Assembly: GCA_016875315.1 (NCBI GenBank)
Contig: VGRQ01000001.1
Span: 1-51,982, forward strand
Direction: 5' to 3'
DNA: 51,982 nt
Origin: Deltaproteobacteria bacterium
GTDB lineage: Bacteria > Myxococcota_A > UBA796 > SXON01
The notes beneath the pieces are model-generated. The model ran no database searches and was not told the DNA's origin. It saw only the letters and a program-made list of their open reading frames with translations. Below, in pieces: positions 12,552-46,584 of this stretch (positions are counted from its first letter, which is position 1; each line of letters opens with the position of its first letter). Made by a program: the position numbers and the translations under genes.

Positions 12552-12560
12552 AGCACGCCC

Positions 12561-25082: not shown

Positions 25083-26602
25083 TAGCGCACCTCGTAGAGC
25101 GTGGCGGCCGCCAGCGGGCCGTGGCCGAGCGCCACCGGGAGCGGCCCGAGGGTCTCGGCGTAGAGGCCCGCGCCGGCGCGCACGTCCACCACGCGGAGCG
25201 GGAAGCGGCTGGTCGACACCACGCGGGCCATCGGCTCCCAGGCGGCGGGCACCGCGCCCCCCGACTGCTCGTCGACGGCCACGAGGGTGCCGGGCGTGGG
25301 CTCGTCTACCCGGGAGGCGCCGGCCGCTTCCATCGCGTGACGGAAGGTCCACTCCCCCCGGAACAGCGAGGCGCGGTGCTGCTCGATCATCCCGGTGGCG
25401 ACCTCCGCCGAGGCCCGCGCGTAGGCCCAGTCGGCGGCCACGGTGGCCAGCCCGAGTGCCCCGGCGAGGCCGGTGGCCACGGCCAGGGCGCGCTTGCCGT
25501 GGGCCACCTCCTCGGCGGAACGGGCGGCGAGGATGGCCACCGGCACGGCGGCGGGGAGGAGGTAGCGGGCCGAGGCGTAGTTGTGGACCCCGACCACGCC
25601 GAGGACGACGGCGATGACGACGCTGCCGAGCATGAAGGAATCGAGACGGTCTCCCTTGCGACGGCGGGTGACGGGCGAGACGCAGGCGAGCGCCGCGCGC
25701 GACAGGGCGGTGCCGCCGAGCGCGGCGAACACCAGCAGGGCGAGGGCCCCGCTGGCGTCGAGGCCCCCGGGGCGCACCCAGAGCAGCGCCGCCAGGCCGA
25801 GGGCGGTGCCCGCCACGAGGTGGACGGGCGCGGCCAGCGCGAGGCCGAGGCAGGTGGGCAGCAGCGCGAGGCGCGCGAGCGTGCCCAGCGCCCGCCCCTC
25901 CAGGGGTCCGCTTGCGATGATGTCGCGACTCTCCCAGGCCACGAGCGGGTGAAAGGCGCCGTGCTGCACGTAGATCGCACCCTCGATGGCCGCGGGCAGG
26001 GCGATCAGGGGCAGGAACAGGGCCGCGGCGTGGCGCGGCGACAACCGGATGCGAAAGGCGTGGATCGCGACCACCCCGGCCACCAGTACCGCCGGGTACT
26101 TGGTCTCGATGGCCGCGCCGAGAGCGAGGCCGGCGACCGCATAGATCCCGCCGGCGTTGTCGCGAGACAAGGCCTCTCGGTAGGCAGCGAGACCGGCAGT
26201 GGCCAGCGCCACCATCGGCAGGTCGATCATCAGGCTGTCTTGCAGGCCGAGCAGCACCGTCGATGACGCGAGCCAGGCGGCCGCGGCGTACCCGGGGTGC
26301 TTGCACGCGCGCGCCATCCACGTGGCGGCGGCCCAGGCGTAGAGCGCCACCCAGCCGAGCGCAGGCAGGCGGCCGCCGAGGCCGAGAGGCGAGATCAGCT
26401 TCATCCACCACAGGTGGAGCGGCGGGTGGGCGTAGAGGAAGCCGTCGCCCCCCTGCCAGGACCGCGTCCAGGCATAGGGGTCGGCCCAGCCCACCGTCCG
26501 CCCGAGCCAGAGGTAGGACTCCTCGTCCACCACCGGTGGTTTCGGCAGCGCCATCGCCGCCACGGCCACGGCCGCGAGCACCACGCGGAGGGTGAAGCTC
26601 AC
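25082..26602 (-). CDS. GT-C fold glycosyltransferase (ArnT/PMT, GT39/GT83-like)
   Basis: 506 aa, polytopic. The first loop has VVDEESYLWLG (DE motif of ArnT/PMT-type enzymes). There are many TM helices and a soluble C-terminal domain. Confidence 0.7.
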   Translation of the reverse strand: MSFTLRVVLAAVAVAAMALPKPPVVDEESYLWLGRTVGWADPYAWTRSWQGGDGFLYAHPPLHLWWMKLISPLGLGGRLPALGWVALYAWAAATWMARACKHPGYAAAAWLASSTVLLGLQDSLMIDLPMVALATAGLAAYREALSRDNAGGIYAVAGLALGAAIETKYPAVLVAGVVAIHAFRIRLSPRHAAALFLPLIALPAAIEGAIYVQHGAFHPLVAWESRDIIASGPLEGRALGTLARLALLPTCLGLALAAPVHLVAGTALGLAALLWVRPGGLDASGALALLVFAALGGTALSRAALACVSPVTRRRKGDRLDSFMLGSVVIAVVLGVVGVHNYASARYLLPAAVPVAILAARSAEEVAHGKRALAVATGLAGALGLATVAADWAYARASAEVATGMIEQHRASLFRGEWTFRHAMEAAGASRVDEPTPGTLVAVDEQSGGAVPAAWEPMARVVSTSRFPLRVVDVRAGAGLYAETLGPLPVALGHGPLAAATLYEVR

Positions 26603-26605
26603 GGC

Positions 26606-27664
26606 CTAGCCAACGAGAAAACGCTCGAACTGGAGGTAGCTCTCCTCGATGAGCGCCACCTCGGCGTACTCCCCGGCCTGGTGGGCCTGTGCCGCGAGGC
26701 CCGGCCCGAGGTTCACCGCGTCGATTCCCCGCGCGGTGAGTCGCGCCACGTCGGTCCACGCCTGCTTGGCCGCCACCGCATTGCCGTTGCGGGCGAGAAA
26801 CTCGCGCAGGAGCGGGTTCTCGGTGACCACCCGGCCGCTGGGCGCTGCCTCCACCACTTCGATCTCGGCCTCGCCCACCAGGGCGCGGACCTCGTCGATG
26901 GCCTCGTCGATCTCGCGCCCGGGGGCGAAGCGGAAGTTGAGGTTGAGCGAGAAGTGGTCGGGGATCACGTTGCGGGTGTTGCCCCCCTGCGCGAGCGTGG
27001 CGGAGAGCACCTCGCGAAAGGTGAAGCCGTCGATCGCGACGTCGCGCGGAGGTCGCGACGCGAGGTGCGAGAGCAGCGGCGCCGCCTTGTGTATGGCGTT
27101 GTCGCCTTGCCACGGCCGGGCCGAGTGCGCGGCGCGGCCACGGTAGGTCACCCGCAAGTGCAGCGTGCCGAGGCACCCGACTTGCACCACGTTGTCGCTC
27201 GGCTCGAGGCAGAAGGCGAGGTCGGCGCGGCCGAGCCAACCCACCTGGTCGAGCACCGGGCCGAGGCCGCTGTCGACCCACGGTCCCTCCTCCCGGTCGT
27301 AGAACACCAGGCCGAGGTCGAAGCGGGCGCGCGCGGCGACGGCGACGGCGATCTCCAGCATCACGGCGAGGCCGCCCTTCATGTCGCTGGCGCCCACGCC
27401 CCGCACGCGGCCACCCTCGATGCGCGGTGGACCGTCGCCCGGCCGCGGCGGCACCGTGTCGGTGTGGCCCACCAGCAGCACCAGCGGGCGACCCCGTTGC
27501 GGCGTGCGCGCCATCACGCTGTTGCCGAGTCGCGACACGCCGAGCCCGGTGTCGCGCAGTTGCGCCTCGACGAGGTCGGCGCAGGCGGCCTCGTCGCCGG
27601 TGACGCTCGGCACGCGGCACAGCTCGAGCGTGCGCCGGGCGATCCGCTCCCTGAGCGTCGTCAT
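26606..27664 (-). CDS. dapE: succinyl-diaminopimelate desuccinylase-like M20 metallopeptidase
   Basis: 352 aa. LVLLVGHTDTVP, RGVGASDMKGGLAVML and FYDREEG are M20 motifs. It lies 9 nt downstream of dapD. Confidence 0.8.
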   Translation of the reverse strand: MTTLRERIARRTLELCRVPSVTGDEAACADLVEAQLRDTGLGVSRLGNSVMARTPQRGRPLVLLVGHTDTVPPRPGDGPPRIEGGRVRGVGASDMKGGLAVMLEIAVAVAARARFDLGLVFYDREEGPWVDSGLGPVLDQVGWLGRADLAFCLEPSDNVVQVGCLGTLHLRVTYRGRAAHSARPWQGDNAIHKAAPLLSHLASRPPRDVAIDGFTFREVLSATLAQGGNTRNVIPDHFSLNLNFRFAPGREIDEAIDEVRALVGEAEIEVVEAAPSGRVVTENPLLREFLARNGNAVAAKQAWTDVARLTARGIDAVNLGPGLAAQAHQAGEYAEVALIEESYLQFERFLVG

Positions 27665-27673
27665 GGCGCCTTC

Positions 27674-28456
27674 CTACACCGCGACCGCGAAATCGCGCAG
27701 GGCAGCGTTGAGCGACACCTTCTGGTCGGTGCTGGCCTGGCGGCGGCCGATGATGAGCGCGCAGGGCACGCCGTAGTCGCCGGCCGGGAAACGTTTCTGG
27801 CGGGTTCCGGGGATCACGACGCTCCGGGGCGGCACGTGGCCCTTGTAGACCACCTCCTCTGGCCCGGTGACGTCGATCACCTGGGTGGAAGCGGTGAGGA
27901 CGACGTTGGCGCCGAGCACGGCCTCCTCGCCCACCACCACGCCCTCCACCACGATGCACCGGCTGCCGATGAACGCGCCGTCTTCCACGATGACCGGCCG
28001 GGCGCCGGGCGGCTCGAGGACGCCGCCGATGCCCACGCCGCCGGACAGGTGTACGTTGCGGCCTACCTGGGCGCAGGATCCGACGGTGGCCCAGGTGTCG
28101 ACCATCGTGCCGCTGCCGACGCGCGCGCCGATGTTGACGTAGCCGGGCATCACGACGGCGCCCCGCTCGAGGAAGGCGCCGTAGCGCACCGTGCCTGGCG
28201 GGACGACGCGCACCCCAGCCGCCGCGAGCCCCCGCTTCAGGGGGATCTTGTCGTGGAACTCGAAGGGTCCCACCTCGTGGACTTCCATCTGCGACACGCC
28301 GAAGAAGCCGAGGATGGCCTGCTTCACCCAGGCATGGACCACCCACTCGCCATCGACCTTCTCGGCCACGCGGAGCTCGCCCCGGTCGAGCCGAGCGACG
28401 GCCTCGCGGATGGCCTCGGGATCGCGGGCCTCGACCGCAGCTTGCAGGCTGTGCAT
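27674..28456 (-). CDS. dapD: 2,3,4,5-tetrahydropyridine-2,6-dicarboxylate N-succinyltransferase
   Basis: 260 aa. Left-handed beta-helix hexapeptide repeats (VNIGARVGSGTMVDTWATVGSCAQVGRNVHLSGGVGIGGVLEP...) and the N-terminal DapD region EWVVHAWVKQAILGFF. Confidence 0.9.
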   Translation of the reverse strand: MHSLQAAVEARDPEAIREAVARLDRGELRVAEKVDGEWVVHAWVKQAILGFFGVSQMEVHEVGPFEFHDKIPLKRGLAAAGVRVVPPGTVRYGAFLERGAVVMPGYVNIGARVGSGTMVDTWATVGSCAQVGRNVHLSGGVGIGGVLEPPGARPVIVEDGAFIGSRCIVVEGVVVGEEAVLGANVVLTASTQVIDVTGPEEVVYKGHVPPRSVVIPGTRQKRFPAGDYGVPCALIIGRRQASTDQKVSLNAALRDFAVAV

Positions 28457-28506
28457 CGGCGTCGGCTAACGTGCTCCCAGGGGGGGCGTGCTAGGATCGG
28501 CGCCGC

Positions 28507-29220
28507 GTGGAAGCACAGGTCATCATCGCGTGGGCGGCCCTCGGGCTCGGCACGCTCGCGCTCGTGCTCGGCCTCGTCTTCGGCGTGCGCACGTTCCGCC
28601 TCGCGCGCGTGCTCAGCGCCACGCCGCCCACGCCGATCCCGGCGCTGGAGCCCGGCCTGCACGAGGTTCTGGGCGTGGTCCACGGCGAGGGCGCGGTCGA
28701 GTCCCCTTTGTCGCGACAGACGTGTGTCTACTGGCGCATGATCATCGAGCAGCGACGTCGCAACCGATGGGAGACACTCGTCGACAAGCGCGAGGCGGTA
28801 CCCTGCTGGCTCGACGACGGCGGCGGCCGCGTGGCAATCTCGCCGATCGACGCCGACGTCATCGTCACCCTGGGCGCGCGGGGGACGGGCGGTATCTTCG
28901 GGTACCCGAGTGCCCAGTTGTCGGAGGTGCTGGAGCGGTTGCGCGAGGCGCCAGAAGGCCTGGCGGGCCCCTACCTGCGCTACCGCGAGGAGGTGGTCAA
29001 TCCGGGCGACCGGCTCCACGCTGTCGGCACCGTGGTGAACACGGGTGACGGGTGGGAGATGCGCAAGGAGAACGATGTCTACGTGATCAGCGACCGCGAC
29101 GAGGCCGACATGGTGCGCAACCAGGAGCGGCTGGCGCTGCGCTGGGCGGGCCTCGCGGTGGCGGGGGCGCTCGCGATGGCCTGGGGTTTCTTGAACAGCA
29201 ACGCCGCGGCGCTGTTGTAG
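28507..29220 (+). CDS. two-TM membrane protein with a GIDE-like domain
   Basis: 237 aa. N-terminal TM IIAWAALGLGTLALVLGLVFGV and C-terminal TM WAGLAVAGALAMAWGFL. The middle region (SPLSRQTCVYWRMIIEQRR...PCWLDDGGGRVAISP...) resembles bacterial GIDE-domain proteins. From memory. Confidence 0.55.
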   Translation: MEAQVIIAWAALGLGTLALVLGLVFGVRTFRLARVLSATPPTPIPALEPGLHEVLGVVHGEGAVESPLSRQTCVYWRMIIEQRRRNRWETLVDKREAVPCWLDDGGGRVAISPIDADVIVTLGARGTGGIFGYPSAQLSEVLERLREAPEGLAGPYLRYREEVVNPGDRLHAVGTVVNTGDGWEMRKENDVYVISDRDEADMVRNQERLALRWAGLAVAGALAMAWGFLNSNAAALL

Positions 29221-29224
29221 GCGC

Positions 29225-29635
29225 TCAGCCCACCAGCCGGCGGTGCTCCGGCATCATGCAGCGGTCTTGCACCACCTCGATGCCTGCCGCCCGGAGGCGC
29301 GCGGCGGCCTCGTCGTGGCGGATCCCGAGCTGGAACCAGGCCACGCGCGGCTTCCAGGGCAGGGCGAGGATTTCCCGGGCGTGGCCGAGGAGGAACTCCG
29401 GCCGCCGAAAGATCTCGATCACGTCGACGGGACCGAGCTCGGCGAGGGTGGCCAGCGCCGGCGCGCCGAGCCAATCCCCGCGGAGCTTCGGGTTGACGCC
29501 CACGACGCGCCACCCGTGCTGGCGCAGGTAGGCGGGCACGTAGAACGCGGCCTCGTGGGGAGAGTCCTTGGCACCGAGCACCGCCACCGAGCGGTTCTCG
29601 GTGAGGATGCGGCGGAGGTCGCCGTCGGTGGGCAT
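29225..29635 (-). CDS. CoA-binding domain protein (YccU-like)
   Basis: 136 aa. ILTENRSVAVLGAKDSPHEAAFYVPAYLRQHGWRVVGVNP...DVIEIFRRPE...VAWFQLGI is the typical CoA_binding_2 pattern. Confidence 0.85.
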   Translation of the reverse strand: MPTDGDLRRILTENRSVAVLGAKDSPHEAAFYVPAYLRQHGWRVVGVNPKLRGDWLGAPALATLAELGPVDVIEIFRRPEFLLGHAREILALPWKPRVAWFQLGIRHDEAAARLRAAGIEVVQDRCMMPEHRRLVG

Positions 29636-29659
29636 GTGCGAGTCTAGTCCACCCTCGGA

Positions 29660-31930
29660 TCAGGCGGCCTTCTCCTTCACGAGCCCCCGCGGCAAGAGCG
29701 CCAGCATCGCGGGCAACACGAGCAGGTCGCCAAACACGCCCGTGCCGAGCGCGAGGGCCACCAGCAGCCCGAACCACGCCACCGACTTCACCGCGGCGAG
29801 GCCGAGGACCGAGAAGCCAAGCGACAAGCCGAGCGCGGTGATCACGAGCGACCGTCCCACCCCGCGCACCGTCACCCGCGTCGCCTCGTTGACGTCGCCT
29901 CGCGACGCCAGCTCGTGCTGGAAGCGGTAGAGGAATTGCACGGTGTCGTCGACGACGAGGCCGAGCACGATGGCGCCGATGGTGACGGTGGCCACGTCGA
30001 GGCGGATGCCGGCGAAGCCCATCACCCCGAGGGTGAGCAGGATGGGCACGAGGTTGGCGGGCACGGCGAGCGCGGCGAGGCGCAGGCTCCGGAACAAGAG
30101 GGCGATGAGGCCGAAGATGAGGACGAAGGCAAGGCCGAAGCTGCTCAGTTGGCTCTGCACGATGTAGTCCATCATGTGGACGTAGAGCGGGAGGTAGCCG
30201 GTGGGCGTGACGGTGACGCCCGCGGGCAACTCCGCCATCGCGACGAGCCGGGTGATGAGCTTGCCCATCTCGGCGGCGGAGAGCATCGGGATCCCCACCG
30301 TCACCCGTGCCGACTTCCAGTCACCCTCCACCTGCGCGGAGAGGTCGATCTCCGGGGAAGACTGGTACAACAGGAAGGCCTGCGTCAGCGCCGCTGGATC
30401 GGCGGGCACGGTGTCGCTGCGATCGACCGACAGCTCGCGGTTGAGGCGCTTCGCCACGTCGGCCACGCTCGACGCCCATGCCACCTCGGGGTCGGCCTCC
30501 ATCCGGCGCTCCCAGCGGTCGACGGCGGCGAGGAGCGCGGGGTCGTCGACCCGGTCTGGGCCCCGGACCACGAATTCCAGTGGCGTGTAGGGACCCACGG
30601 CTTGTTCGATCCACGCGGAGTCGACGCGCACCTTGTGCGACTCGCGGAAGTAGTCCAGCGAGTAGGTGTCCACCACGATCTTGCTGATCCCCAGCATCGA
30701 CACCAGCGCCAGCACCGCCGTGGCGGCGAGCACGGGTAGCGGTCGCGACAGGGCGAGTTCGGCGCAGGCGTCGACGAAGGCCTGGAGCTTGCCGTGGTTC
30801 GACACGGTGGGCTGGAAGGCCGGCCACAACAGCGCCACGGGGCAGAAGATGAAGGCGAGGAGGAAGGCCACCGAGAGGCCGACGGCCGCGTAGACACCGA
30901 GGTCGCGGAGCACCGCCATCGGCGCCGTGGCCAGCGAGGCGAAGCCCACGACCGTCGTGACCGTGTTGAACAGGCAGGGCATGAACACGAAGCCAGCGGC
31001 CTTCCGCACCAGCTCCCAGCGCGTGCCCGTCCACCCCTCGCTCAACTCGGCGGTGTGGTTCATCACGTGTACGCAGTCCGACACGCCGATCACCAGCACG
31101 AGGGTGGGCAAGATCATCGTGACCATGTTGATGTCGCGACCGGCCAGGCCGTATGCTCCCATGAGCCAGGCCGCGCCCACGCCCACCGACACCATCGCCA
31201 CCCCCATCGCCGCCACCCGGCCCATGAGCACCCACAGCACGGCGACGATCAACAGGTAGCTGGCACCGATGAACACCACCGAGTCGACGGTGGAGAGCCG
31301 GTTCAGCGCCGCGTAGATGACGCCGATCCCTGCCTCGCGATGGTCGGTGCCAAGGAGCGGATCGACGGCGCTGCGCAGGTCGGCAAGCACGCGATCTCGC
31401 GCCTGGTCGAAGCCCGCCATCGTGGCCATCTGCACGATGACCAGCGCGGTCTTGCCGTCGGGCGACAGCAGCCGTCCCGCCACCTGCGGGTCGCCGAGCG
31501 CGCGCGCGGCGGTGGCCGCCCAGTCGGGATCCTCGTCCACCAGGTTGCCCACGGTGAGCACGGGGAAGCCGTCGGCGTCGAGCTCGCCGCGGATGTCGTC
31601 GACGGTCGCAATCGACGTGACCCTCGCCACGCCATCGACCCGGGCGGCGGCCTCGCCCACGTCGCGCACCCTCTGCATCGCCGCGGGCGTGAAAATGCCG
31701 GCCTCGTCGTGGACGGCGATGGCCACCACCTCGTCGTTACCGAAGGCACGCTGGAAGTCGTGGTAGGCCACCAGCGCCGGGTCGCCCTCGACGAACCACA
31801 CCTCCACCGCGTTGTCGACGCCGATGCCGCGGGCCCAGTGCGCACATAGCCCGGTGACGACGGCGACGAGCGCGAGCAGCGGCCAGCGCAGGCGCAAGAT
31901 CCACTCCACGACGCGCTCGCCGACGCTCAT
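29660..31930 (-). CDS. MMPL/RND-superfamily (sterol-sensing-domain type) transporter, HpnN-like
   Basis: 756 aa with two repeats, each a periplasmic domain followed by a 5-6 TM bundle. ...FQRAFGNDEVVAIAV..., VVFIGASYLLIVAVLWVLMG..., LPTLVLVIGVSDCVHVM..., and a second half ...IVLGLVVDDTVQFLYRF... Confidence 0.85.
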   Translation of the reverse strand: MSVGERVVEWILRLRWPLLALVAVVTGLCAHWARGIGVDNAVEVWFVEGDPALVAYHDFQRAFGNDEVVAIAVHDEAGIFTPAAMQRVRDVGEAAARVDGVARVTSIATVDDIRGELDADGFPVLTVGNLVDEDPDWAATAARALGDPQVAGRLLSPDGKTALVIVQMATMAGFDQARDRVLADLRSAVDPLLGTDHREAGIGVIYAALNRLSTVDSVVFIGASYLLIVAVLWVLMGRVAAMGVAMVSVGVGAAWLMGAYGLAGRDINMVTMILPTLVLVIGVSDCVHVMNHTAELSEGWTGTRWELVRKAAGFVFMPCLFNTVTTVVGFASLATAPMAVLRDLGVYAAVGLSVAFLLAFIFCPVALLWPAFQPTVSNHGKLQAFVDACAELALSRPLPVLAATAVLALVSMLGISKIVVDTYSLDYFRESHKVRVDSAWIEQAVGPYTPLEFVVRGPDRVDDPALLAAVDRWERRMEADPEVAWASSVADVAKRLNRELSVDRSDTVPADPAALTQAFLLYQSSPEIDLSAQVEGDWKSARVTVGIPMLSAAEMGKLITRLVAMAELPAGVTVTPTGYLPLYVHMMDYIVQSQLSSFGLAFVLIFGLIALLFRSLRLAALAVPANLVPILLTLGVMGFAGIRLDVATVTIGAIVLGLVVDDTVQFLYRFQHELASRGDVNEATRVTVRGVGRSLVITALGLSLGFSVLGLAAVKSVAWFGLLVALALGTGVFGDLLVLPAMLALLPRGLVKEKAA

Positions 31931-31986
31931 GCGACGCCGAGTAACGCGCCGCTACCGCGGGCTCCTCTCCCACGCCCGGCACGCTC

Positions 31987-33096
31987 CTACGTCACCGTCT
32001 CCACGTTGAACCCGCCGTACACGAAGGCGCGGTCGCGGGCGAGCAGCGACGCCGCCCGCTCGGGATCGGGCCGCAGTTGCCCGGCGAGCGACTCCGGTCG
32101 CGACCGGGGGACGAGTAGATTCCAGTAGGCGAGGCGGGCGCCGGGGGCGGCGTGCTGGATGGAGAGATCGAGCAGGGCGACGTGGTGCGGGGCTGGCACA
32201 TACTCAAACAAGTTCGAGTAGTTGAACTTGCTGAATGACCTGGGGGCCCGGGGCAAGTAGTCCTCGAGCGAGGCGTGGACGAAGCACAGCTTCTCCGCGG
32301 CAGCCCTGAGCTTCGCGTGCCCGCCGGTCGTGAGCCAGGGCGGCCCGAGCTCCAGGTCGCCGTGCTCGCCGGTGAGCATCCAGCGGAGGAAGAAGTTGTC
32401 GGCCACCGGGATCTCGGTGAGCGCGTGCTTCGCCCGCGCGAGGAACCGATCGGCCACCGCGCCCTCCACCTGGGCGAAGTGCTCGGGGCTGCGACCGCTG
32501 CGTGACATCACGAAGCGCGAGAAGAACAGCTTGAACAGGCCGCGCCAGCGCCAGGTGTCCCAGCGTTCCGCGTACAAGGCGCGCTGCTCGTCGAGCGAGG
32601 TACAGGCGAGCATCGCGTCGATGGTGTCGCGACCGTGAACCAGGGGCAGCACGCGGGTGCGGAAGGTGTCGAGGTAGCGCTCGAAACGACCCTGGCCGAG
32701 CAAGCCGAGGCGGATCAGCTCCTCGTGGTGGTCCCAGTAGGCGCGCACCTCGGGACGGAGGTTCTCGCGGACAGAGTGGTAGAACCACACGCGACGCCCG
32801 AAGTGACCGAGCCCGAACATCGAGCGCACCGACTGGACGGGGAGCGCGCGCACGGCGGCGAGCTTGAGCTCGGCGAGCGCGATCTGCGGGAAGGAGAGGT
32901 CGATGCAGGTGACGGAACGCGCCCCGGCGATGGCCAGCGCGAAGCTGTTGTCGCCGGCCGAGCAGATGGAGAGCACGTCGTCGCCGGGCTGGATGTCGAG
33001 CGCCGCTTCCAGCACCGCGGGATCTTCCCAGCACTGCGCGTAGGAGATCGCGCGGGCGAGGATCGAGCCCTCCACGGTCGACCGCAGTTCGCTCAC
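31987..33096 (-). CDS. BtaA-like DUF3419 family SAM-dependent 3-amino-3-carboxypropyl transferase-like protein
   Basis: The GTG start at 33096 overlaps the upstream TGA (GTGA at 33093-33096). 369 aa. ISYAQCWEDPAVLEAALDIQPGDDVLSICSAGDNSFALA... is the hallmark N-terminus of DUF3419/BtaA. It is in frame with track ORF 31987..33384. Confidence 0.75.
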   Translation of the reverse strand: MSELRSTVEGSILARAISYAQCWEDPAVLEAALDIQPGDDVLSICSAGDNSFALAIAGARSVTCIDLSFPQIALAELKLAAVRALPVQSVRSMFGLGHFGRRVWFYHSVRENLRPEVRAYWDHHEELIRLGLLGQGRFERYLDTFRTRVLPLVHGRDTIDAMLACTSLDEQRALYAERWDTWRWRGLFKLFFSRFVMSRSGRSPEHFAQVEGAVADRFLARAKHALTEIPVADNFFLRWMLTGEHGDLELGPPWLTTGGHAKLRAAAEKLCFVHASLEDYLPRAPRSFSKFNYSNLFEYVPAPHHVALLDLSIQHAAPGARLAYWNLLVPRSRPESLAGQLRPDPERAASLLARDRAFVYGGFNVETVT

Positions 33097-35507
33097 AGCT
33101 TCTCCACCTTCCCCGTGGATCCGTCCATGCGGAGGCGATCGCCGGTGCGCACCGCCGCGGTGAGGCCGGGGATGCCGATAATCGTCGGCAGGCCCATCTC
33201 GCGCGCCACCACCGCCGAGTGGCTCAGCAGCGAGCCCCGCTCCACGAGGAGCCCGGAGATCGCGGGGTAGAGGGGCACCCAGCCGGGGTCGGTGCGGAAC
33301 GCGGCGAGGATCTGGCCGTCGAGCCTCGCCCCCTCGTGCGGGTCGGCGAGCACCATCACCTCCTTCTCCACCACGCCGGGGCACACGCCGGTGCCGACCA
33401 GGCCCTCGCCGGTGGTCGCTGTTCGCGGGCGCTTGAAGGGGTTGTGAAGGTGGACCGCGCCTCGCGTGTAGAACCGGTCGTCGGGCACCGCGCCTGCCTG
33501 GTAGCCCTCGAATTCACGGCGACGCAGCGCGATGGTCTCGCGCAGCGCCACGCTCACCGCCGTCCCGCGCACCATCCCCAGCAGCTCCGGGACGGCGAGG
33601 TAGAACACGTCTTCCACGCGGTCGATGGCGCGGGCATCGACGAGGTGAGCGCCCAGGGCCCGGAAGATGTCGCGGCACAGGCCGAAGATGCGGGTGCGAA
33701 GGAAGCGGAGGTTCTCCCGGTCGCGCACGCGCGCCCGCGCCTGGGCGAGCACGCGGGAGAAGGCGAGCTTTCGCCAGCCCGAGAGGCGAGCGAAGGCTCT
33801 CTGCTCCGCCTCGGCCCGCACCCGTCCCTCGGCGCTGGGATCCATCGGCGGCGCGCGCAGGTAGTTCCGCAGCGACGCCACGAGGAAGGAAGGGTCCTGT
33901 CGCAACGACGGCGTCTCGAGCTTGAGCTCGTTCACGCAGCGGTCGCCGTACTTGTCGATGTAGCTGTCCCAGGCCGCGACGAAGCCCGGCACGGCGCGAG
34001 CCTCGTCCAGCGAGAACTCAGGCACTACCTTGCCGCGCAACAGCTCCGCCATCGCCAGCGCAGCATGCATGGGCGCCACGCTCTCGAGGCCACCCTCGCC
34101 GCTGAGCAACTCGTTGTGGAGCTGTCCCTGCGCGCCCTGGGCATCGACATCGCCGCACCAGCTCGCGCACAGCTTCCGCAGCGTGCCGTAGAAGATCATC
34201 GTGAGGAAGTCGTTGACGATGGGGGTCGACCAGGCCCAGAGGAGCTCCCGCTCGAGCACCTCGTAGGCTTCCACCAGGTCCTCCGGCGCCATGCGGGACA
34301 GGTCGCGCCTGCGCCAGGGCTGGTACACCCGGTCGAAGTGGGCGTGGAAAGTGGCCACGTCGCCATCGATGGTGCGGAGACGCCAGCCGAGCACGCCGAT
34401 GAGCTTCAAGAGTCGCAGGCCGTCGCGCAGCGAGCGGGCGGGCTTGGCGTCGCCCACGTCTTGCTCGCGGGCCACCTCGGCCACGCCCATCATCTGTTCC
34501 ATGAACGCGGCGTTGTACTTGTACCCGGGCAGGATCTGCACCAGGCGGTACCAGGCGTTGAGGTTGTAGTAGACGCGCCCGCGGACGAGGCCGATCATGC
34601 GCGGGTACACCGAGCTCTGGGCGAGGATCTCGGCCTCGCTGACGCCCATCACCCGCAGGAACAGCTGGTAGACGATGGTGTAGGCGTGCTGGGCGAAGCT
34701 GTAGGTGAGCGGCGTGGTGACGCCGTTGTAGCTCTCGATGATGTTGCTGTTGTCCCACAACAGGCGTCGGCCGCGCGGGATGGGCGTCGTCACCGGTCGT
34801 GCCTGGAGGAACCACACCTTTCCGCCTTCGACGGTGAACTCGATGTCGAGCTCGTGGCCGAAGCTCTTGCGCAGGCGGCGCGCCCCCGTAGCGAGGTCGC
34901 GGACGGCGTCGTCGGCGAGGACGGGGTCGCGACGGTCGATCGTCACCTCGCGCGGGGCGCCGTCGACGAGGACCACGGCCGCGTCCTTGTGGACCACGGT
35001 GGCCTCGACCTCGCCCGCTTCGGTGACCCGGTAGGTGTCGCATGGGACCGATCCCTGCACCACCCCCTCGCCGAGCCCGAAGGCGGCGGAGACGAGCACC
35101 CGGTCGGGGTCGTCGGGGGTGGCGGTGAAGCACACGCCGCTCGCCTCGCCCACCACCATGCGCTGCACCACCACCGCCACCGGCGAGGGCTCGATGCGGT
35201 GCGCCGCGCAGTAGGCGAGTACGCGATCGCTCTGGCCGGATGCGCGGCAGGTCGCGACCGCGTTGAGTACGCCGTCCCAGGACGACACGCCCAGCACCGA
35301 CACGTACTGGCCGGCGAAGCTGTGGGTGGCGCTGTCTTCGCCCAGGGCGCTCGACCTCACGGCGAGGGGCAGGCCGAGCGCCTCGATGGCCCCGCGCGCG
35401 GCCTCGGGGTCGGCGTCGGGTTCGATGACCACGTACGGCGGCACGGCCACCCCGGCTTGCTGCAGGCGGGCGAGGCCGGCTGCCTTGCCGCCGATGCGCG
35501 GGCTCAC
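33093..35507 (-). CDS. PEP-utilising phosphotransferase with rifampin-phosphotransferase-like three-domain layout
   Basis: The GTG start at 35507 overlaps the upstream TGA (GTGA at 35504-35507). 804 aa. N-terminal ATP-grasp / PEP-pyruvate-binding motifs are IGGKAAGLARL and VRSSALGEDSATHSFAGQY. A roughly 400-aa central region is unrecognised. The C-terminal swivel domain reads GLLVERGSLLSHSAVVAREMGLPTIIG (phospho-His). It is the 3' part of track ORF 33093..37205. Confidence 0.8.
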   Translation of the reverse strand: MSPRIGGKAAGLARLQQAGVAVPPYVVIEPDADPEAARGAIEALGLPLAVRSSALGEDSATHSFAGQYVSVLGVSSWDGVLNAVATCRASGQSDRVLAYCAAHRIEPSPVAVVVQRMVVGEASGVCFTATPDDPDRVLVSAAFGLGEGVVQGSVPCDTYRVTEAGEVEATVVHKDAAVVLVDGAPREVTIDRRDPVLADDAVRDLATGARRLRKSFGHELDIEFTVEGGKVWFLQARPVTTPIPRGRRLLWDNSNIIESYNGVTTPLTYSFAQHAYTIVYQLFLRVMGVSEAEILAQSSVYPRMIGLVRGRVYYNLNAWYRLVQILPGYKYNAAFMEQMMGVAEVAREQDVGDAKPARSLRDGLRLLKLIGVLGWRLRTIDGDVATFHAHFDRVYQPWRRRDLSRMAPEDLVEAYEVLERELLWAWSTPIVNDFLTMIFYGTLRKLCASWCGDVDAQGAQGQLHNELLSGEGGLESVAPMHAALAMAELLRGKVVPEFSLDEARAVPGFVAAWDSYIDKYGDRCVNELKLETPSLRQDPSFLVASLRNYLRAPPMDPSAEGRVRAEAEQRAFARLSGWRKLAFSRVLAQARARVRDRENLRFLRTRIFGLCRDIFRALGAHLVDARAIDRVEDVFYLAVPELLGMVRGTAVSVALRETIALRRREFEGYQAGAVPDDRFYTRGAVHLHNPFKRPRTATTGEGLVGTGVCPGVVEKEVMVLADPHEGARLDGQILAAFRTDPGWVPLYPAISGLLVERGSLLSHSAVVAREMGLPTIIGIPGLTAAVRTGDRLRMDGSTGKVEKL

Positions 35508-36397
35508 GCGAAAGCCGCCCCGGCCCAGAGCGAGCCGAAGTCGAGCAACATCGCCAGCGAGGCGGCCAGCTCCACCCTTTTCTGCGGCATCCCCGCCCGG
35601 GTGAGGAAACGACCGAGCAAGGCGCCCACGAGCGCGGGGATGGCGTAGCGCCAGTCCCGGGTGAACGAGGTCAGCGCGCCCACGGTGAGCACCCCCGACA
35701 CGGCAACCAGCGCATAGACCATCGTCCCCGCTCGCTCGCGGCCATGCACCGACGAGTAGCTCTCGACGCCCGGCACCTCCTCGGCGGGCAGGCGCGTCTT
35801 GCGGGCGATCTCGAAGGCCAGGCTCGTGGTGGAGGCCAGCCAGATGAACCAGTTGAACCGGTCGTCCCAGCGACCGTGGGTGGTGGCCCAGGTGAACACC
35901 GCGAGCAACGCCACCACCGGGTTGTGGGTAATGGCGTAGACGAGGATGTGCTTGTTGAGCCAGCGGCCCACGCCGAACTCGAAACGCATGGCCACGGTGA
36001 ACGCGAAGACCGCCGCCCACCAGATGAGCACGTCGCGTCCGCCGAGCGCCGCCAGCACCACCTCGGCGGCGATGGCGACCGCGCCCCAGGCCTTGAGCAT
36101 ACGCAACGTGACGACGCCCCGGGACAGCAATCGCTCGGGATGGGAGATCCTGTCCTTCTCGTGGTCCTTGTGCTCGTCGAACACCCGCAGGTGGAAGAAG
36201 ACCAGCAGGATGACCGGCGCCAGCCACCAGGTGGGCGTGCCGCGGCACACCCGGTGCGCGAAGACCGCCCCCGCGCCATAGAAGCTCGCGACGAGCAGCG
36301 CGTAGGGCCCGGGCGGGAAGCGCTCCTTGAGGTAGGCGAGGAAGACCACGCCGCCGTCTATGCCGCCCCGGCGGCGGGGGCTTAGACGCCGCGCCAT
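35504..36397 (-). CDS. UbiA-superfamily-like integral membrane prenyltransferase
   Basis: About 297 aa from the ATG at 36397 (an alternative GTG at 36349 gives VVFLAYLKERF...). About 8 TM helices. Asp-rich loop RVFDEHKDHEKDRISHPERLLSRG resembles the first D-rich motif followed by the R-P/L-x-x-G of UbiA-type enzymes. I did not find a clear second DxxxD motif. Confidence 0.5.
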   Translation of the reverse strand: MARRLSPRRRGGIDGGVVFLAYLKERFPPGPYALLVASFYGAGAVFAHRVCRGTPTWWLAPVILLVFFHLRVFDEHKDHEKDRISHPERLLSRGVVTLRMLKAWGAVAIAAEVVLAALGGRDVLIWWAAVFAFTVAMRFEFGVGRWLNKHILVYAITHNPVVALLAVFTWATTHGRWDDRFNWFIWLASTTSLAFEIARKTRLPAEEVPGVESYSSVHGRERAGTMVYALVAVSGVLTVGALTSFTRDWRYAIPALVGALLGRFLTRAGMPQKRVELAASLAMLLDFGSLWAGAAFA

Positions 36398-37505
36398 GCC
36401 CGTGTTCATCCGCAGCACCGCCGAGCTCCGCCACTGGGTCGAGCGCCTCGCGAGTTGCCAGGTGCTCGCCGTCGACACCGAGTTCCACCCGGAGCGCAAG
36501 TACTTCCCCGAGCTGATGCTCGTGCAGCTGCGGGGCGACGAGGGCGAGGTGCTGCTCATCGATCCGCGCGGCGACGTCGACCTGCGACTGCTCAGCCCGC
36601 TGATCGAGTCGAAGGTGCTCCTGGTGCACGGCGGCGAGCAGGACGTCGACCTGCTCGCCCGCGCGACCGGCGGCCGCGCCACCCGGTGGTTCGACACCCA
36701 GGTCGCGGCCGGTTTCTGCGGCCTCGGCTACCCGCGCCGGCTCGGCGACCTCGTGCTGGCCGTGCTCGGTCGCGCGATGGACAAGGGCGAGACGCTCTCG
36801 GACTGGTCGCGTCGCCCGCTGAGCGCCGAGCAGCTGCGCTACGCGGCCGACGACGTGCTGGTCCTGGCTCCGCTGGCCACGGCGCTCCGGGAAAGGGTGG
36901 AGGCGATGGGACACGCGGCTGGCCTCGAGGCCTGCCTCGGAGAGCGACTGGCGGAGGCGCACGCGGCGCCGGCCGACGAGCTGGCCTGGCGCCGGGTGCC
37001 CAGCGCCCACCTGCTCGACGATCGCGAGCGCGCCATCGTCGCCGCGCTCGCGGCCTGGCGCGAGAAGTCCGCGCGCTTCTCCGACGTGCCCCCCCACTCC
37101 ATCGCCCCCGACCACGTCCTGGTCGACCTGGCCCGGCGCCGCCCGCAATCCGCCGAGGCGATGCGCGAGAATCGCCGCATGCCGTCGCAGGTGTGGAAGC
37201 AGCACGGGGCCACGATTCTCGGCATTCTCGCCGGAGCGGACCGGTTGCCGGTCCCGCTCGCGCCGATCACCGGCCTTGCCGCCGACGCCTTGCGCCTCGC
37301 GGCTCGCCTGGCGGAGGTGGAGGGAGGAGTTGCCGCGGCCCTCGTCCTGCAGGAACGTGAAGTAGACTACATTCTAAAAGGATTGCAGATCGCGCACTGG
37401 CGGCTCCAGGCATTGGGTGCGGCGTTTCTAGATTTTACCCGAGAAAGGACGGCTATTTCCGTGCGAGGAAAGTGGAGTCCAACAATAGCGATAGACGACA
37501 GATAG
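36396..37505 (+). CDS. rnd: ribonuclease D (DEDD 3'-5' exonuclease plus HRDC)
   Basis: ATG at 36396 within track ORF 36360..37505. VLAVDTEFHPERKYFPELMLVQL (Exo I), LVHGGEQDVDLL (Exo II), YAADDVLVL (Exo III), then an HRDC-like region PHSIAPDHVLVDLARRRPQS. The last ~145 nt are visibly AT-richer. Confidence 0.85.
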   Translation: MPVFIRSTAELRHWVERLASCQVLAVDTEFHPERKYFPELMLVQLRGDEGEVLLIDPRGDVDLRLLSPLIESKVLLVHGGEQDVDLLARATGGRATRWFDTQVAAGFCGLGYPRRLGDLVLAVLGRAMDKGETLSDWSRRPLSAEQLRYAADDVLVLAPLATALRERVEAMGHAAGLEACLGERLAEAHAAPADELAWRRVPSAHLLDDRERAIVAALAAWREKSARFSDVPPHSIAPDHVLVDLARRRPQSAEAMRENRRMPSQVWKQHGATILGILAGADRLPVPLAPITGLAADALRLAARLAEVEGGVAAALVLQEREVDYILKGLQIAHWRLQALGAAFLDFTRERTAISVRGKWSPTIAIDDR

Positions 37506-37871: not shown

Positions 37872-38885
37872 ATGCAAAGACCGCAGTCCCCGGGACGTTC
37901 CCGAGCGGGCCTATTTCTCGTCGGCTCGCTGCTGTTGGCGGTGCTCGCGGCCGGGCTCGTCTTCCGCATCGTCAAGCGGAGCCAGGAGCAGCTCAACGAG
38001 GCGGCGAAGCCCAGCAATACCGTCGATGTCGTGGTCGCCCAGCGCGACCTCTACATGGGCCTGTCCATCGGCGACCAGGACGTGGTGCTGCGCCAGTTGC
38101 CCCTGGGCTCCGTGCCCGAGGAAGGCATCTTCAGCAGCCTCGACGACGTCGTGGGTCGCACCCCGAAGGAGCGCATCCTCGTCGACGAGCCCATCCGCGA
38201 CGAGCGACTCGCGCGCCCGGCGCAGGGCATTGGGCTCAACGCCGTGGTCACCCCCGGCAAGCGGGCGATGACGGTGGCCACCAACACCGAAGACGCAGTG
38301 GCGGGCTTGCTCCAGCCGGGCAACTACGTCGACATCATCGTCACCATCAAGCCTGAAGACCCGGCGGCCGCCAACGCCAAGTGGGCCACCGACACCATCC
38401 TGCAGACGATCAAGGTGCTGGCCGTGGGCGGCTCGCTCTCCCAGTCCGCGGCCGACCAGACGAAGACGGTCACCAGCGCGCCCGGCGAGGACGGGAAGAA
38501 GCGCACCACCACCACCGCGCAGCCGGGTAGCCAGCAAGACATGATGCGACGGATGAAGCCGAGCATCACCCTCGAGGTCACGCCCGAGGAGGCCGAGAAG
38601 CTCGCGCTGGCGGTTGCGCAGGGCGACATCCACGTTGTGCTCCGCAGCGACATCGACAACTTCCAGTACACCGACCACGGGCCCATCACCTCGCGCGCGC
38701 TCATCGGCTTCCCCGCCGGCCCGCCGTCGCCGATCGACCAGCCGAAGACCGACAAGCCGCCGTCGCAGCCCGAGAGTTCCGGCCCCTCGGCCACGGTGAT
38801 CGTGGGGAGCAGCCGCACCGACGTGAAGTTCAACGCCGACGGCACCAGCACCGAAACCACCGACAAGCGGAAGAAGAACCGATGA
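37872..38885 (+). CDS. cpaB: Flp pilus assembly protein CpaB/RcpC
   Basis: 337 aa. N-terminal TM LFLVGSLLLAVLAAGLVF, then a SAF-like VDVVVAQRDLYMGLSIGDQDVVLRQLP, and GKRAMTVATNTEDAVAGLLQPGNYVDIIVT. The C-terminus is a Pro/Ser-rich tail. Confidence 0.85.
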   Translation: MQRPQSPGRSRAGLFLVGSLLLAVLAAGLVFRIVKRSQEQLNEAAKPSNTVDVVVAQRDLYMGLSIGDQDVVLRQLPLGSVPEEGIFSSLDDVVGRTPKERILVDEPIRDERLARPAQGIGLNAVVTPGKRAMTVATNTEDAVAGLLQPGNYVDIIVTIKPEDPAAANAKWATDTILQTIKVLAVGGSLSQSAADQTKTVTSAPGEDGKKRTTTTAQPGSQQDMMRRMKPSITLEVTPEEAEKLALAVAQGDIHVVLRSDIDNFQYTDHGPITSRALIGFPAGPPSPIDQPKTDKPPSQPESSGPSATVIVGSSRTDVKFNADGTSTETTDKRKKNR

Positions 38886-40258
38886 ACCGATGGAATCTGG
38901 CCGCAGCCGTGGCTGCGGCCCTGCTGGTCAGCCCCTACTCCGCCCGCGCCGACGACGGCCTCGTCATCGACGTGGGCGTGGGCACCTCCACCATCGTGCG
39001 CGAGGGTCGCCCCATCACGCGGGTGCTGCTGAGCGACCCCGACGTGGCGGAGCTGCGGCTCCTGGAAGAGGGCCAGTACCAGGTGCGCGGCCTCGAAGTC
39101 GGCAACACCGACCTCTACGTCTGGTTCCGGGGCGACGAGGCGCGGCCCAAGTCCTACCGCGTGCTGGTCACCAACGACCTGAGCGACATGGAGCGTCGCA
39201 TCAGGGAAACCGTGCGCGGCGCCGAGCCGCCACGGGTGTACCCGCTGAGAGATCGCCTCTGCGTGGAGGGTCCCGTCCCCGACATGGACACGCTCGAGCG
39301 CATCGCGGCGATCGCGCGCGTCTACGATCCCGAGTTCATCAACCTGATGTCGGTGCAGGGCGACCACCAGGTGCAGCTCCAGGTGGTCTTCGCCGAGCTG
39401 AGCCGCACGGGGCTCCGGGAGATGGGGCTCAATCTCATCGGCAGCGCCGGCACCGCGCTCGGGGGCATCCAGGGCCCGCAGTCGAGCTCGGCCTTCGACG
39501 CATCGCTGTGGGATCCGGAGGCGATTCCCAACGTGAATTACGGCGCGGCGCAGGCGGCCTCGGCCGAGGCGTTCAGCGTCGTCGGCATGGTCACCGGCGC
39601 GGTGAACATCGCCAGCGTGCTCTCGGTGCTCGAGCAGTACAACCTCGCCAAGACCCTCGCCCAGCCCAACCTGGTGGCCTTGTCGGGCCAGCAGGCCGAG
39701 TCACTCGTGGGCGGCGAGATCCCCATCCCGGTGTCGCAGGTCGGCAACCGCATCACCATCGAGTACAAGGAATACGGGGTGAAGCTCATCTTCGTCCCGA
39801 CGGTGCTCGAGGGCGAGGTGGTCGACGTGCGGATGTACGTCGAGGTCAGCGGTGTCGACCCGAACACTTCGACCCGCCTCTCGGGTATCGAGATTCCCGG
39901 CATCGTATCGCGCAAGTACAAGTCACACGTGCGCGTGGAGAACGGCAAGACCTTCGCCATGGCCGGCATCCTCGACGAGCGCGTGGAGGCCACCCGCGCT
40001 GCCGTCCCGCTGCTGGGTGATCTCCCGGTGGTGGGCGCCCTCTTCCGCTACGTCAAGCACGAGCGCAAGGAGACGGAGCTCGTCGTGTTCGTCACGCCGC
40101 GGCTGGTGCGGCCGCTGGCACCGGGCGAGGTGCCGCCCGCGCCGGGCACCACCGAGGGCTACAATCCCAACGACTTCGAGCTGTTCATGATGGGACAGAT
40201 GGTCGAGGCCGGCACCCGCACCGCCCAGCCCACGGGCGCCTTCGGCATGAAGCGGTAG
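38882..40258 (+). CDS. cpaC: Tad secretin CpaC/RcpA
   Basis: The ATG overlaps the cpaB TGA (ATGA). Signal peptide, then a pilus-formation N-domain (RVLLSDPDVAELRLLEEGQYQVRGLEVGNTDLYVW). Secretin core: AKTLAQPNLVALSGQQAESLVGGEIPIP...VPLLGDLPVVGALFRY...ETELVVFVTPRLV. Confidence 0.9.
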   Translation: MNRWNLAAAVAAALLVSPYSARADDGLVIDVGVGTSTIVREGRPITRVLLSDPDVAELRLLEEGQYQVRGLEVGNTDLYVWFRGDEARPKSYRVLVTNDLSDMERRIRETVRGAEPPRVYPLRDRLCVEGPVPDMDTLERIAAIARVYDPEFINLMSVQGDHQVQLQVVFAELSRTGLREMGLNLIGSAGTALGGIQGPQSSSAFDASLWDPEAIPNVNYGAAQAASAEAFSVVGMVTGAVNIASVLSVLEQYNLAKTLAQPNLVALSGQQAESLVGGEIPIPVSQVGNRITIEYKEYGVKLIFVPTVLEGEVVDVRMYVEVSGVDPNTSTRLSGIEIPGIVSRKYKSHVRVENGKTFAMAGILDERVEATRAAVPLLGDLPVVGALFRYVKHERKETELVVFVTPRLVRPLAPGEVPPAPGTTEGYNPNDFELFMMGQMVEAGTRTAQPTGAFGMKR

Positions 40259-40264
40259 CGCACG

Positions 40265-41449: not shown

Positions 41450-41457
41450 GGTGACCG

Positions 41458-44679: not shown

Positions 44680-44681
44680 AC

Positions 44682-45410: not shown

Positions 45411-45412
45411 CC

Positions 45413-45649: not shown

Positions 45650-46584
<935 letters not shown>

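Follow-up and report, generated by a model that had tools for sequence, protein, structure and literature searches.

BtaA, an enzyme of family DUF3419, reportedly moves the 3-amino-3-carboxypropyl group of S-adenosylmethionine (SAM) onto a lipid oxygen, and nicotianamine synthase is itself an aminocarboxypropyl transferase. The plant and cyanobacterial route of phytol salvage runs through the phytol kinase VTE5, the phytyl-phosphate kinase VTE6 and the UbiA-type transferase VTE2. Rifampin phosphotransferase (RPH) converts a substrate and ATP into the phospho-substrate, AMP and Pi (PMC4844700), and HapC and PigC condense pyrroles on the same scaffold as RPH (PMC13534948). In a 51,982-nucleotide stretch of DNA from a deltaproteobacterium (contig VGRQ01000001.1, positions 1 to 51,982; hereafter the window), relatives of BtaA and RPH are encoded in one operon with a UbiA-like membrane protein, an exporter of the resistance-nodulation-division (RND) type and a small CoA-binding protein. 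The first four genes, A to D, are one translationally coupled unit. At about even confidence, we read them as a module that makes an isoprenoid-anchored amphiphile, its head group an aminocarboxypropyl (amino-acid-type) unit derived from SAM, and exports it through the RND protein.

The first-pass annotation of the window had placed five co-directional minus-strand genes at 29225-36397, and the open reading frame (ORF) coordinates bear this out. The genes and their junctions are as follows, in the direction of reading.

36350-36395, no strand: divergent intergenic region of 46 nt between gene A and rnd
35504-36349, minus strand: gene A, UbiA-superfamily integral membrane protein of 281 aa (from the likely start)
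35504-35507, minus strand: stop of A and start of B overlapping as GTGA, translational coupling
33093-35507, minus strand: gene B, soluble RPH/PigC-like dikinase of 804 aa with PPDK_N, central Rph-type and phosphohistidine swivel domains
33093-33096, minus strand: stop of B and start of C overlapping as GTGA, translational coupling
31987-33096, minus strand: gene C, DUF3419 (BtaA-family) SAM-dependent transferase of 369 aa
29660-31930, minus strand: gene D, MMPL/HAE3-type RND transporter of 756 aa
29225-29635, minus strand: gene E, small CoA_binding_2 protein of 136 aa

Both GTGA overlaps reported in the first-pass annotation are real, and so are its two remaining gaps of 56 nt (C-D) and 24 nt (D-E), the latter holding the Shine-Dalgarno-like motif GAGGGTGG. 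The GC content at third codon positions is ~0.92-0.94 in the five ORFs (window GC 70%) and therefore all five frames are taken as coding. The operon is indeed bracketed by a convergent GIDE gene (28507-29220, plus strand) and by a divergent rnd gene with DNA_pol_A_exo1 and HRDC domains. The previously given end at 36397 is right as the longest possible ORF start of gene A (ATG, 297 aa), but GTG 36349 is the most likely start of the gene, and ATG 36396 that of rnd, since independent gene calls on a contig encoding identical proteins give 281 aa for A, 369 aa for rnd and 804 aa for B, and the homologues of A are 279-298 aa long. The longest-ORF start of A overlaps the likely rnd start (ATG 36396-36398) head-to-head. 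Positions 36350-36395 form the sole non-coding space open to an operon promoter and, with only 46 nt between the divergent genes, the promoters of both must lie in, or overlap, coding sequence. A scan of 28400-37000 found no sigma-70-like promoter and no intrinsic terminator, a result that is uninformative at 70% GC, while the Rfam and tRNA scans of the window gave no match and hence no SAM or other riboswitch.

Homologous loci were collected with a profile of C from one genome per GTDB species, which yielded 80 loci (L002-L081) and 59 further matches outside this set. The loci were mapped by tblastn with family seeds, and the counts below refer to the 43 loci with at least 4 kb on each side of the DUF3419 gene. 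B is found in 40 of these 43 loci, A together with B in 34, D (following C) in 27 and E in a single one; B lies directly upstream of C (at most 151 nt) in 33 of 41 loci. The firm core is B plus C, with A and D frequent but dispensable. The UbiA/dikinase/DUF3419/MMPL quartet, whose co-occurrence the earlier reading had set as a check, recurs widely in related loci, although only B and C are near-strict partners. The five-gene unit itself holds as far as the A-D module; gene E is probably co-transcribed, yet outside the conserved module.

A-B-C-D is the usual order in a Myxococcota-type clade (L001-L034, L043, L051, L052 and L064), which often retains synteny with rnd and Tad/Flp pilus genes and in which all junctions can be 4-nt overlaps. 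Among the loci with gene calls, the 4-nt B/C overlap is also seen in L001, the contig of P0070, L089 and L090, and the 4-nt A/B overlap in L089 and L090. A reciprocal search from three B homologues recovered A-B-C-D in two of the three contexts, the third being an extended cluster on a contig that ends right after B. Pairwise identities among A, B and C correlate (rho 0.70-0.77), which is weak evidence since any genes on one species tree would correlate. The conservation far exceeds chance, dozens of unrelated contigs having this gene order.

By record titles the cluster spreads over ~15 phyla. Its carriers are found in Myxococcota, Planctomycetota, Acidobacteriota (including Thermoanaerobaculia), Actinomycetota, Pseudomonadota, Bacillota, Bacteroidota (including Salinibacter/Salinivenus and Fluviicola), Cyanobacteriota (including Calothrix PCC 7716), Methylomirabilota, Marinimicrobia, Hydrogenedentota, Zixibacteria and Gemmatimonadota, and among gammaproteobacterial metagenome-assembled genomes (MAGs). 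Cultured carriers include Brevibacillus laterosporus B9, the alphaproteobacterium Roseinatronobacter sp. S2, where the cluster is plasmid-borne, Calothrix sp. PCC 7716 and Fluviicola. Matches to DUF3419 and the dikinase number in the thousands in the protein database, a figure limited by E-value and not restricted to the subfamilies. The window itself is core chromosome, with gyrA, htpG, rnd and a Tad pilus. Nine loci with the Myxococcota-type cluster and 64-73% GC (L004, L005, L008, L015, L017, L020 and L026-L028) are titled Klebsiella pneumoniae, uncultured Klebsiella sp. or uncultured Enterobacterales; these labels on the MAG records are evidently wrong.

Profile searches uphold every family assigned to the five proteins in the first-pass annotation (DUF3419, UbiA, PPDK_N/PEP-utilizers, MMPL and CoA_binding), and each protein appears to keep the residues that its family needs for catalysis. 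The C protein matches Pfam DUF3419 over its full length (203 bits against a cut-off of 28.2; profile positions 10-382 of 385). For comparison, authentic btaA-btaB pairs were retrieved from Sinorhizobium and Chondrinema, and C is 26% and 21% identical to their respective BtaA proteins (canonical BtaA range 21-27%). Throughout the C family there is no variation in the SAM-site motifs that true BtaA also has, the common positions being Y19, W23, E24, D25, S46, G48, N50 and D66 (Y-x-x-x-W-E-D and S-x-G-x-N). Of 63 subfamily-conserved residues, 21 are common to both BtaA proteins and 42 differ. On its sequence, C represents a subfamily distinct from canonical BtaA, and the low identity together with the 42 divergent positions argues for an acceptor pocket other than that of diacylglycerol.

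A tblastn search with two BtaB sequences reached a best E-value of 1.6 in the window and found none in the 80 genome-scan loci. Its sole match was the canonical S. meliloti btaA-btaB locus (L084), which served as control, and every canonical btaA gene recovered by that search has a btaB after it. The earlier statement that the operon is not btaA-btaB is thereby borne out. The absence of BtaB, the low identity and the dikinase and UbiA-like partners suggest that the acceptor of C is probably not plain diacylglycerol. JGI annotates many of its homologues as SAM-diacylglycerol 3-amino-3-carboxypropyl transferase. The AlphaFold2 model of C (predicted local distance difference test, pLDDT, 91.4) gave weak structural matches to class-I methyltransferases and to nicotianamine synthase. 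A PDB sequence search with C found no match, there being no solved structure for the DUF3419 family.

The B protein has no predicted transmembrane segment and is soluble. It matches PPDK_N (174 bits against 27) and PEP-utilizers (71.5 against 23.1), the domain PF27448 (Rph_4th) is recorded on a protein identical to it, and its best PDB sequence match is the Listeria rifampin phosphotransferase 5fbs (E 7e-56). It has the RPH architecture of an ATP-grasp domain, an Rph-type central domain and a His swivel domain with the catalytic His. His763 is invariant among 60 homologues, within the motif T-D-P-G-W...G-x-x-L-S-H-x-A-x-x-x-R-E-x-G-x-P, and the ATP-grasp residues are invariant among the homologues as well. 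The nearest model is NCBIfam NF004881, itself uncharacterised, which B matches with 727 bits, under the cut-off of 883. B is not an equivalog of Rph (NF041857, 270 bits against 999; NF000283, 211 against 1700), of PigC (232 against 1300) or RedH (260 against 1350), or of phosphoenolpyruvate (PEP) synthase (TIGR01418, 165 against 740; NF005057, PpsA, 176 against 598). The Pfam scan of B showed no PEP-utilizers_C, the PEP/pyruvate-binding TIM barrel, and the protein stops at the swivel domain. N-terminal truncation of B was considered, as the match to NF004881 begins at profile position 98, and was rejected: an IGGK motif lies near residue 5, and in the alignment B is only ~15-20 residues shorter than its homologues. 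No role in a lipid pathway was reported for the RPH-type dikinase class in the literature searched.

At some loci a second, more divergent dikinase paralogue adjoins the DUF3419 gene.

L037 7203-9272, L062 6259-8328, L077 7872-9962, L046 11862-13943 and L039 5311-7392: divergent dikinase paralogue

This paralogue, ~31-33% identical as measured in L037 and L062, is extra to the cluster-type copy in L046 and L077 and is the sole copy detected in L037 and L062.

Gene A encodes a protein that marginally exceeds the cut-off of Pfam UbiA (PF01040; 36.5 bits against 34.2), while its homologues at other loci reach 43-57 bits. Its AlphaFold2 model (pLDDT 97.5) matches UbiA-superfamily structures in Foldseek with probability 1.00 and template modelling (TM) scores of 0.58-0.70 (6m31, 4od4, 4tq3/4tq4/4tq5 and 8j8j). 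The top matches are digeranylgeranylglyceryl phosphate (DGGGP) synthase 6m31 (E 2e-5, TM 0.65), ApUbiA 4od4 (TM 0.70) and decaprenylphosphoryl-phosphoribose (DPPR) synthase 8j8j (TM 0.69); AfUbiA (4tq3) is among the others. Identity to these structures is 12-16% (14-16% to DGGGP synthase), and the model places A in the UbiA fold with high confidence. A PDB search with A as a single sequence found no match, while its profile gave a marginal match to DGGGP synthase (E 0.028). The first Asp-rich motif, which in the superfamily reads N-D-x-x-D-x-x-x-D and binds Mg2+/diphosphate, is here D74-E75-x-K77-D78-x-x-x-D82; it aligns with that of DGGGP synthase, and its D74, K77, D78 and D82 are invariant among 36 homologues. 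The second Asp-rich motif has no DxxxD; the equivalent loop is the conserved E196-x-x-R199-K200-x-R-x-P-x-x-E207, whose acidic residues may substitute for it.

The D protein matches Pfam MMPL in two stretches (78 bits against 20.5) together with Sterol-sensing. A crude hydropathy scan gave 14 hydrophobic windows in two clusters, with large loops at ~26-211 and ~411-589, in agreement with the two transmembrane bundles and two large loops of an RND protein. Its best NCBIfam model is HAE3 (TIGR00921, 172 bits against 352), and it scores under all curated cut-offs. D is not HpnN (TIGR03480, 42.6 bits against 752; NF052374, 18.9 against 1100) and scores 93.8 bits against 875 with the MmpL model, so no orthologue of a named transporter is recognised. 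The HpnN score, together with a window in which no hopanoid genes were found, supports the earlier view that this is not a hopanoid hpn cluster. In L003, a 91%-identical relative, the MMPL gene is absent downstream of the DUF3419 gene and an unrelated 440-aa ORF lies there (10381-13394), which reflects either a true loss or replacement of the gene or a join made in assembling the MAG.

In a sub-clade with B-C-D and no A nearby (L028, L032 and L034), a LolA_like gene (PF17131) stands divergently upstream of B, and in L032 a DUF1302 protein is encoded divergently upstream too.

L028 5647-6423, L032 4434-7267 and L034 5966-6727: LolA_like region, upstream of B and divergent

LolA_like and DUF1302 proteins may partner the MMPL pump in the periplasm and the outer membrane.

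Gene E encodes a CoA_binding_2 protein (118 bits against 22.8). Its homologue downstream of D is found only in L002, a 93%-identical relative, and we propose that E is a lineage-specific passenger and not a module member.

The operon of the window is a reduced, Myxococcota-type form of a larger multi-phylum cluster, the extra genes of which have no homologue anywhere in the 52-kb window. These include a GNAT-domain protein of ~330 aa (29 loci), an acyl-CoA-ligase-like AMP-binding enzyme of ~520 aa (~23 loci; nearest to PRK09274, 'fatty acid CoA ligase family') and an HMG-CoA reductase (365-393 bits) in 11 scanned loci (among L002-L081) and in Brevibacillus, usually next to A. The reductase is closest to the NADPH-type model TIGR00533 and matches the degradative NAD-type model much more weakly. 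A polytopic membrane protein, here called X/Y, occurs in 25 loci, usually right after C, and carries the motif LADxAAALxGxRYG...KSxEGS...DNLxVP. We take this motif to resemble those of phytol and dolichol kinases. The X/Y family matches DUF92 (the VTE6 phytyl-phosphate-kinase family) with E 0.008 and CTP_transf_1 with E 0.036, both weak. In hhalign it aligned at D..A..G...K(S/T)xEG with two CTP_transf_1 (CdsA-like) proteins at a probability of 2%, and its profile found no match in the PDB. Individual loci add further genes: a P450 in Brevibacillus, with FecCD iron-siderophore permeases just upstream; a sulfotransferase, a P450 and a major facilitator superfamily (MFS) transporter in place of MMPL in a Phycisphaeraceae MAG (planctomycete); an AurF-like oxygenase; and a reductase of the nonribosomal peptide synthetase (NRPS)-like type in Calothrix. 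The locus of Brevibacillus, which is a monoderm, has no MMPL gene. One representative of an ORF-cluster 'family' (L041:10783-12048) was rejected as lying in the wrong frame, the true gene there belonging to the X/Y family, and antisense 'families' in high-GC loci were discarded as spurious products of single-linkage clustering of stop-to-stop ORFs.

In four extended clusters (L045, L047, L065 and L083) the HMG-CoA reductase gene is directly upstream of A, and one Foldseek match of A, 8djk, is a structure of human UBIAD1 bound to HMG-CoA reductase; this parallel is probably a coincidence.

From the gene structure, the families, the catalytic motifs and the linkage across phyla, we infer substrates, order of steps and product as follows. 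A would ionise a polyprenyl (or other) diphosphate at D-E-x-K-D-x-x-x-D, and the chain would be joined to an oxygen nucleophile in the membrane. B would load its swivel His763 with ATP and phosphorylate a hydroxyl of a hydrophobic substrate in the Rph-type domain (ATP to AMP and Pi), giving a lipid phosphate or an alcohol activated for the next step. C would transfer the 3-amino-3-carboxypropyl group of SAM to a lipid oxygen with release of methylthioadenosine. As BtaB is absent, the resulting head group would remain unmethylated, zwitterionic and of the homoserine type. D could then draw on the proton gradient to pull the product out of the inner membrane and towards the outer one. Given how tightly B and C are coupled, it is tempting to speculate that the product of B is the substrate of C; a phospho-homoserine head could arise, for instance, if C alkylated a lipid phosphate. 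In the extended clusters, HMG-CoA reductase and the prenol-kinase/CdsA-like protein may serve isoprenoid supply or activation, the GNAT protein and acyl-CoA ligase may N-acylate the new amine, and the P450 and sulfotransferase may tailor the product. The HMG-CoA reductase beside A, the X/Y family after C and a bona fide CTP_transf_1 gene abutting A in Fluviicola are consistent with an isoprenoid anchor. The RND-like hydropathy of D, the LolA_like/DUF1302 genes, the MFS swap in the planctomycete and the lack of an MMPL gene in the monoderm Brevibacillus are consistent with export.

Several observations weigh against this proposal. The scores of B are similarly distant from RPH (270), RedH (260) and PigC (232), and B could therefore be an ATP-dependent condensing enzyme instead of a kinase. 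The second metal-binding motif of A is non-canonical and its chemistry may differ from prenyl transfer, while the prenol-kinase assignment of X/Y is a weak one (E 0.008-0.036; hhalign 2%; a motif resemblance). A and D are absent at some loci despite ample flank. Finally, the P450, sulfotransferase and AurF-like genes and the plasmid of Roseinatronobacter suggest a specialised metabolite and not a structural lipid, and the tailoring enzymes look as much like those of specialised metabolism as like those of bulk membrane lipids. It is possible, if rather unlikely, that the cluster makes a secreted small amphiphile (signal, surfactant or metallophore-like) that is not a membrane constituent, with C acting like nicotianamine/staphylopine-type enzymes, B like PigC/RedH, and the MMPL or MFS protein secreting the product. 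This would account for tailoring and export genes that differ by locus (P450, sulfotransferase, MFS, AurF-like, NRPS-like reductase), for the patchy distribution with plasmid carriage, for B scoring as well against RedH/PigC as against RPH, for the FecCD permeases of Brevibacillus and for nicotianamine synthase among the weak structural matches of C. The set of HMG-CoA reductase, CoA ligase and GNAT protein also recalls the mevalonyl-CoA/N-acyl logic of fungal SidI/SidF. However, tailoring genes are absent from the clade of the window, where the conserved position on the core chromosome beside rnd and the Tad pilus looks like that of a housekeeping operon, A is a UbiA-fold enzyme integral to the membrane, D belongs to the lipid-exporting MMPL/HAE3 branch, and the LolA_like/DUF1302 partners indicate outer-membrane delivery of a hydrophobic cargo. 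The two explanations overlap, with the same chemistry leading to another destination.

C might instead be a functional BtaA that acts on diacylglycerol and gives a phosphate-sparing diacylglyceryl-homoserine, exported by D, with A and B accessory or unrelated. C is a full-length DUF3419 protein that keeps Y-x-x-x-W-E-D, S-x-G-x-N and D66 of BtaA, the JGI name of its homologues says as much, and the gene for a PI-PLC-like protein, a possible diacylglycerol generator, is inserted between C and D at one locus (L014, 11101-12450), which would fit a diacylglycerol acceptor and so counts against the isoprenoid proposal. We nevertheless consider this improbable, as there is no BtaB in the window or the 80 loci whereas canonical BtaA genes each have one, C is only 21-27% identical to BtaA and differs at 42 of the 63 subfamily-conserved positions, the near-obligate coupled dikinase (40 of 43 loci) has no role in the synthesis of diacylglyceryl trimethylhomoserine (DGTS), and the isoprenoid-related partners would be left unexplained. 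An archaeal-style route to isoprenoid ether phospholipids, in which A would resemble DGGGP synthase, B supply or regenerate the phosphate, a CarS/CdsA-like protein activate it and C supply the polar head, is very improbable. Although 6m31 is both the best structural and the best profile match of A, the linked HMG-CoA reductase is of the type closest to TIGR00533, and CTP_transf_1 or CdsA-like genes occur at some loci, ApUbiA and DPPR synthase match A equally well, and its identity to DGGGP synthase is 14-16%. The scanned accessory genes, a set not systematic over every ORF, gave no match to GGGP synthase (PcrB), glycerol-1-phosphate dehydrogenase, geranylgeranyl reductase or CDP-alcohol phosphatidyltransferase, and the window has no CdsA/CarS-like or HMG-CoA reductase gene. 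That B is simply a PEP synthase or rifamycin-resistance kinase, adjacent to its neighbours by chance and sharing no pathway with them, can hardly be entertained. NCBI does name the identical protein of B (P0241) 'phosphoenolpyruvate synthase' and its best solved homologue is a rifampin phosphotransferase, but B has no match to a C-terminal PEP/pyruvate-binding domain and falls far below both models (PpsA 176 against 598; Rph 270 against 999). B keeps its neighbours from phylum to phylum, stop and start codons overlapping, and these linkage data effectively refute chance adjacency.

Other features were noted around the operon and its relatives. Just past rnd, the window carries a Tad/Flp pilus cluster (37872-47887) with RcpC/CpaB, a secretin, a T2SSE ATPase, a TadE/G-like protein with a VWA domain and a ParA/CpaE-like ATPase with a receiver domain. 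The block of rnd and Tad genes is syntenic with A-B-C-D in relatives only 50-57% identical (L001, L089 and the P0070 contig). Beyond the GIDE gene lie three co-directional minus-strand genes (25082-28456), one for a protein like tetrahydrodipicolinate N-succinyltransferase, one for a DapE-like M20 peptidase and one for a membrane protein of 506 aa that weakly matches PMT/GT-C (polyprenyl-phosphate-sugar-dependent glycosyltransferase). On the far side of rnd in L090 (797-5908), two LPG_synthase_TM genes (MprF-type flippase domain) and a second MMPL transporter gene form a second lipid-related block beside the A-B-C-D operon. In Scytonematopsis contorta (L053, 9080-9884) genes for a MafB19-like deaminase toxin and an Imm1 immunity protein split the dikinase/DUF3419 pair, and in L025 (3121-4560) an arylsulfotransferase gene lies on the opposite strand between B and C.

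The four enzyme families are well known, and their combination is without description in the searchable literature, where no account of this cluster was found. The only natural-product mention of DUF3419 in the literature searched is as a flanking gene of the cly cluster. The lipocone paper was considered as a possible description and rejected, as the UbiA neighbourhood there is different. The public names of these proteins are generic or misleading, homologues of B being called 'phosphoenolpyruvate synthase' or 'pyruvate,water dikinase' and those of A '4-hydroxybenzoate polyprenyltransferase'. The cassette is common, with carriers among the Myxococcota of fresh and marine waters, the cyanobacteria, the planctomycetes and the Bacteroidota as well as a Bacillus relative, and its product could therefore be a lipid or amphiphile overlooked in environmental lipidomes. 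Unassigned aminolipids and betaine-like lipids serve as biomarkers and as phosphate-stress markers. The module would widen the chemistry of BtaA-type SAM alkyl transfer, of RPH-type dikinases and of UbiA-type transferases. A more specific proposal, which we advance tentatively as possible though doubtful, is a new class of membrane aminolipid in ~15 phyla with a prenyl(-phosphate) anchor and an unmethylated, SAM-derived head of the homoserine type, N-acylated in the extended clusters. If true, it would bring the first RPH-type dikinase in lipid biosynthesis, the first BtaA-family enzyme with a non-diacylglycerol acceptor and the first MMPL/HAE3 pump dedicated to carrying this lipid to the outer membrane, in some lineages together with LolA-like/DUF1302 partners. 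As cultured carriers have been identified (B. laterosporus B9, Roseinatronobacter sp. S2 and Calothrix sp. PCC 7716), the nature of the product is directly testable.

Comparison with described systems places the module near several of them. With the BtaA/BtaB pathway to DGTS (Rhodobacter, Sinorhizobium and Agrobacterium; algal BTA1) it shares family DUF3419 and the N-terminal motifs, whereas its locus has no BtaB, C is 21-27% identical to BtaA and two thirds of the subfamily-conserved residues are different; the DGTS pathway uses neither a dikinase nor a UbiA-like enzyme, and both are partners of C here. A is like the UbiA superfamily (DGGGP synthase, 4-hydroxybenzoate polyprenyltransferase, DPPR synthase Rv3806c and UBIAD1) in fold and first Asp-rich motif, and differs in its 12-16% identity, its near-threshold Pfam score and the E-x-x-R-K...E loop in place of the second motif. 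B shares the three-part architecture of RPH, PigC, RedH and HapC and keeps the catalytic His, but lies below every curated cut-off for RPH, PigC and RedH and constitutes a subfamily of its own, always linked to DUF3419. Phytol salvage to tocopherol (VTE5, VTE6 and VTE2) pairs the same kinds of protein as the extended clusters, namely a membrane protein like those of the VTE5/VTE6/CdsA superfamily and a UbiA-type enzyme, and by analogy suggests that a free prenol is first activated and then transferred by the UbiA-type enzyme. However, the similarity is weak (E 0.008-0.036), the window has neither an X/Y gene nor aromatic-acceptor enzymes, and phytol salvage has no counterpart to the dikinase or the DUF3419 protein.

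The operon belongs to none of the named pathways that join lipid synthesis to an RND exporter (hpn/HpnN; mycobacterial MmpL), and resembles them all the same. D is not orthologous to the named MMPL/HAE3 exporters and has no hopanoid or polyketide genes nearby, but it shares with HpnN (hopanoids), MmpL3 and MmpL7 the two MMPL/sterol-sensing bundles and two large loops. In the hpn and mycobacterial lipid loci the exporter is likewise encoded beside the biosynthetic genes, as D is here.

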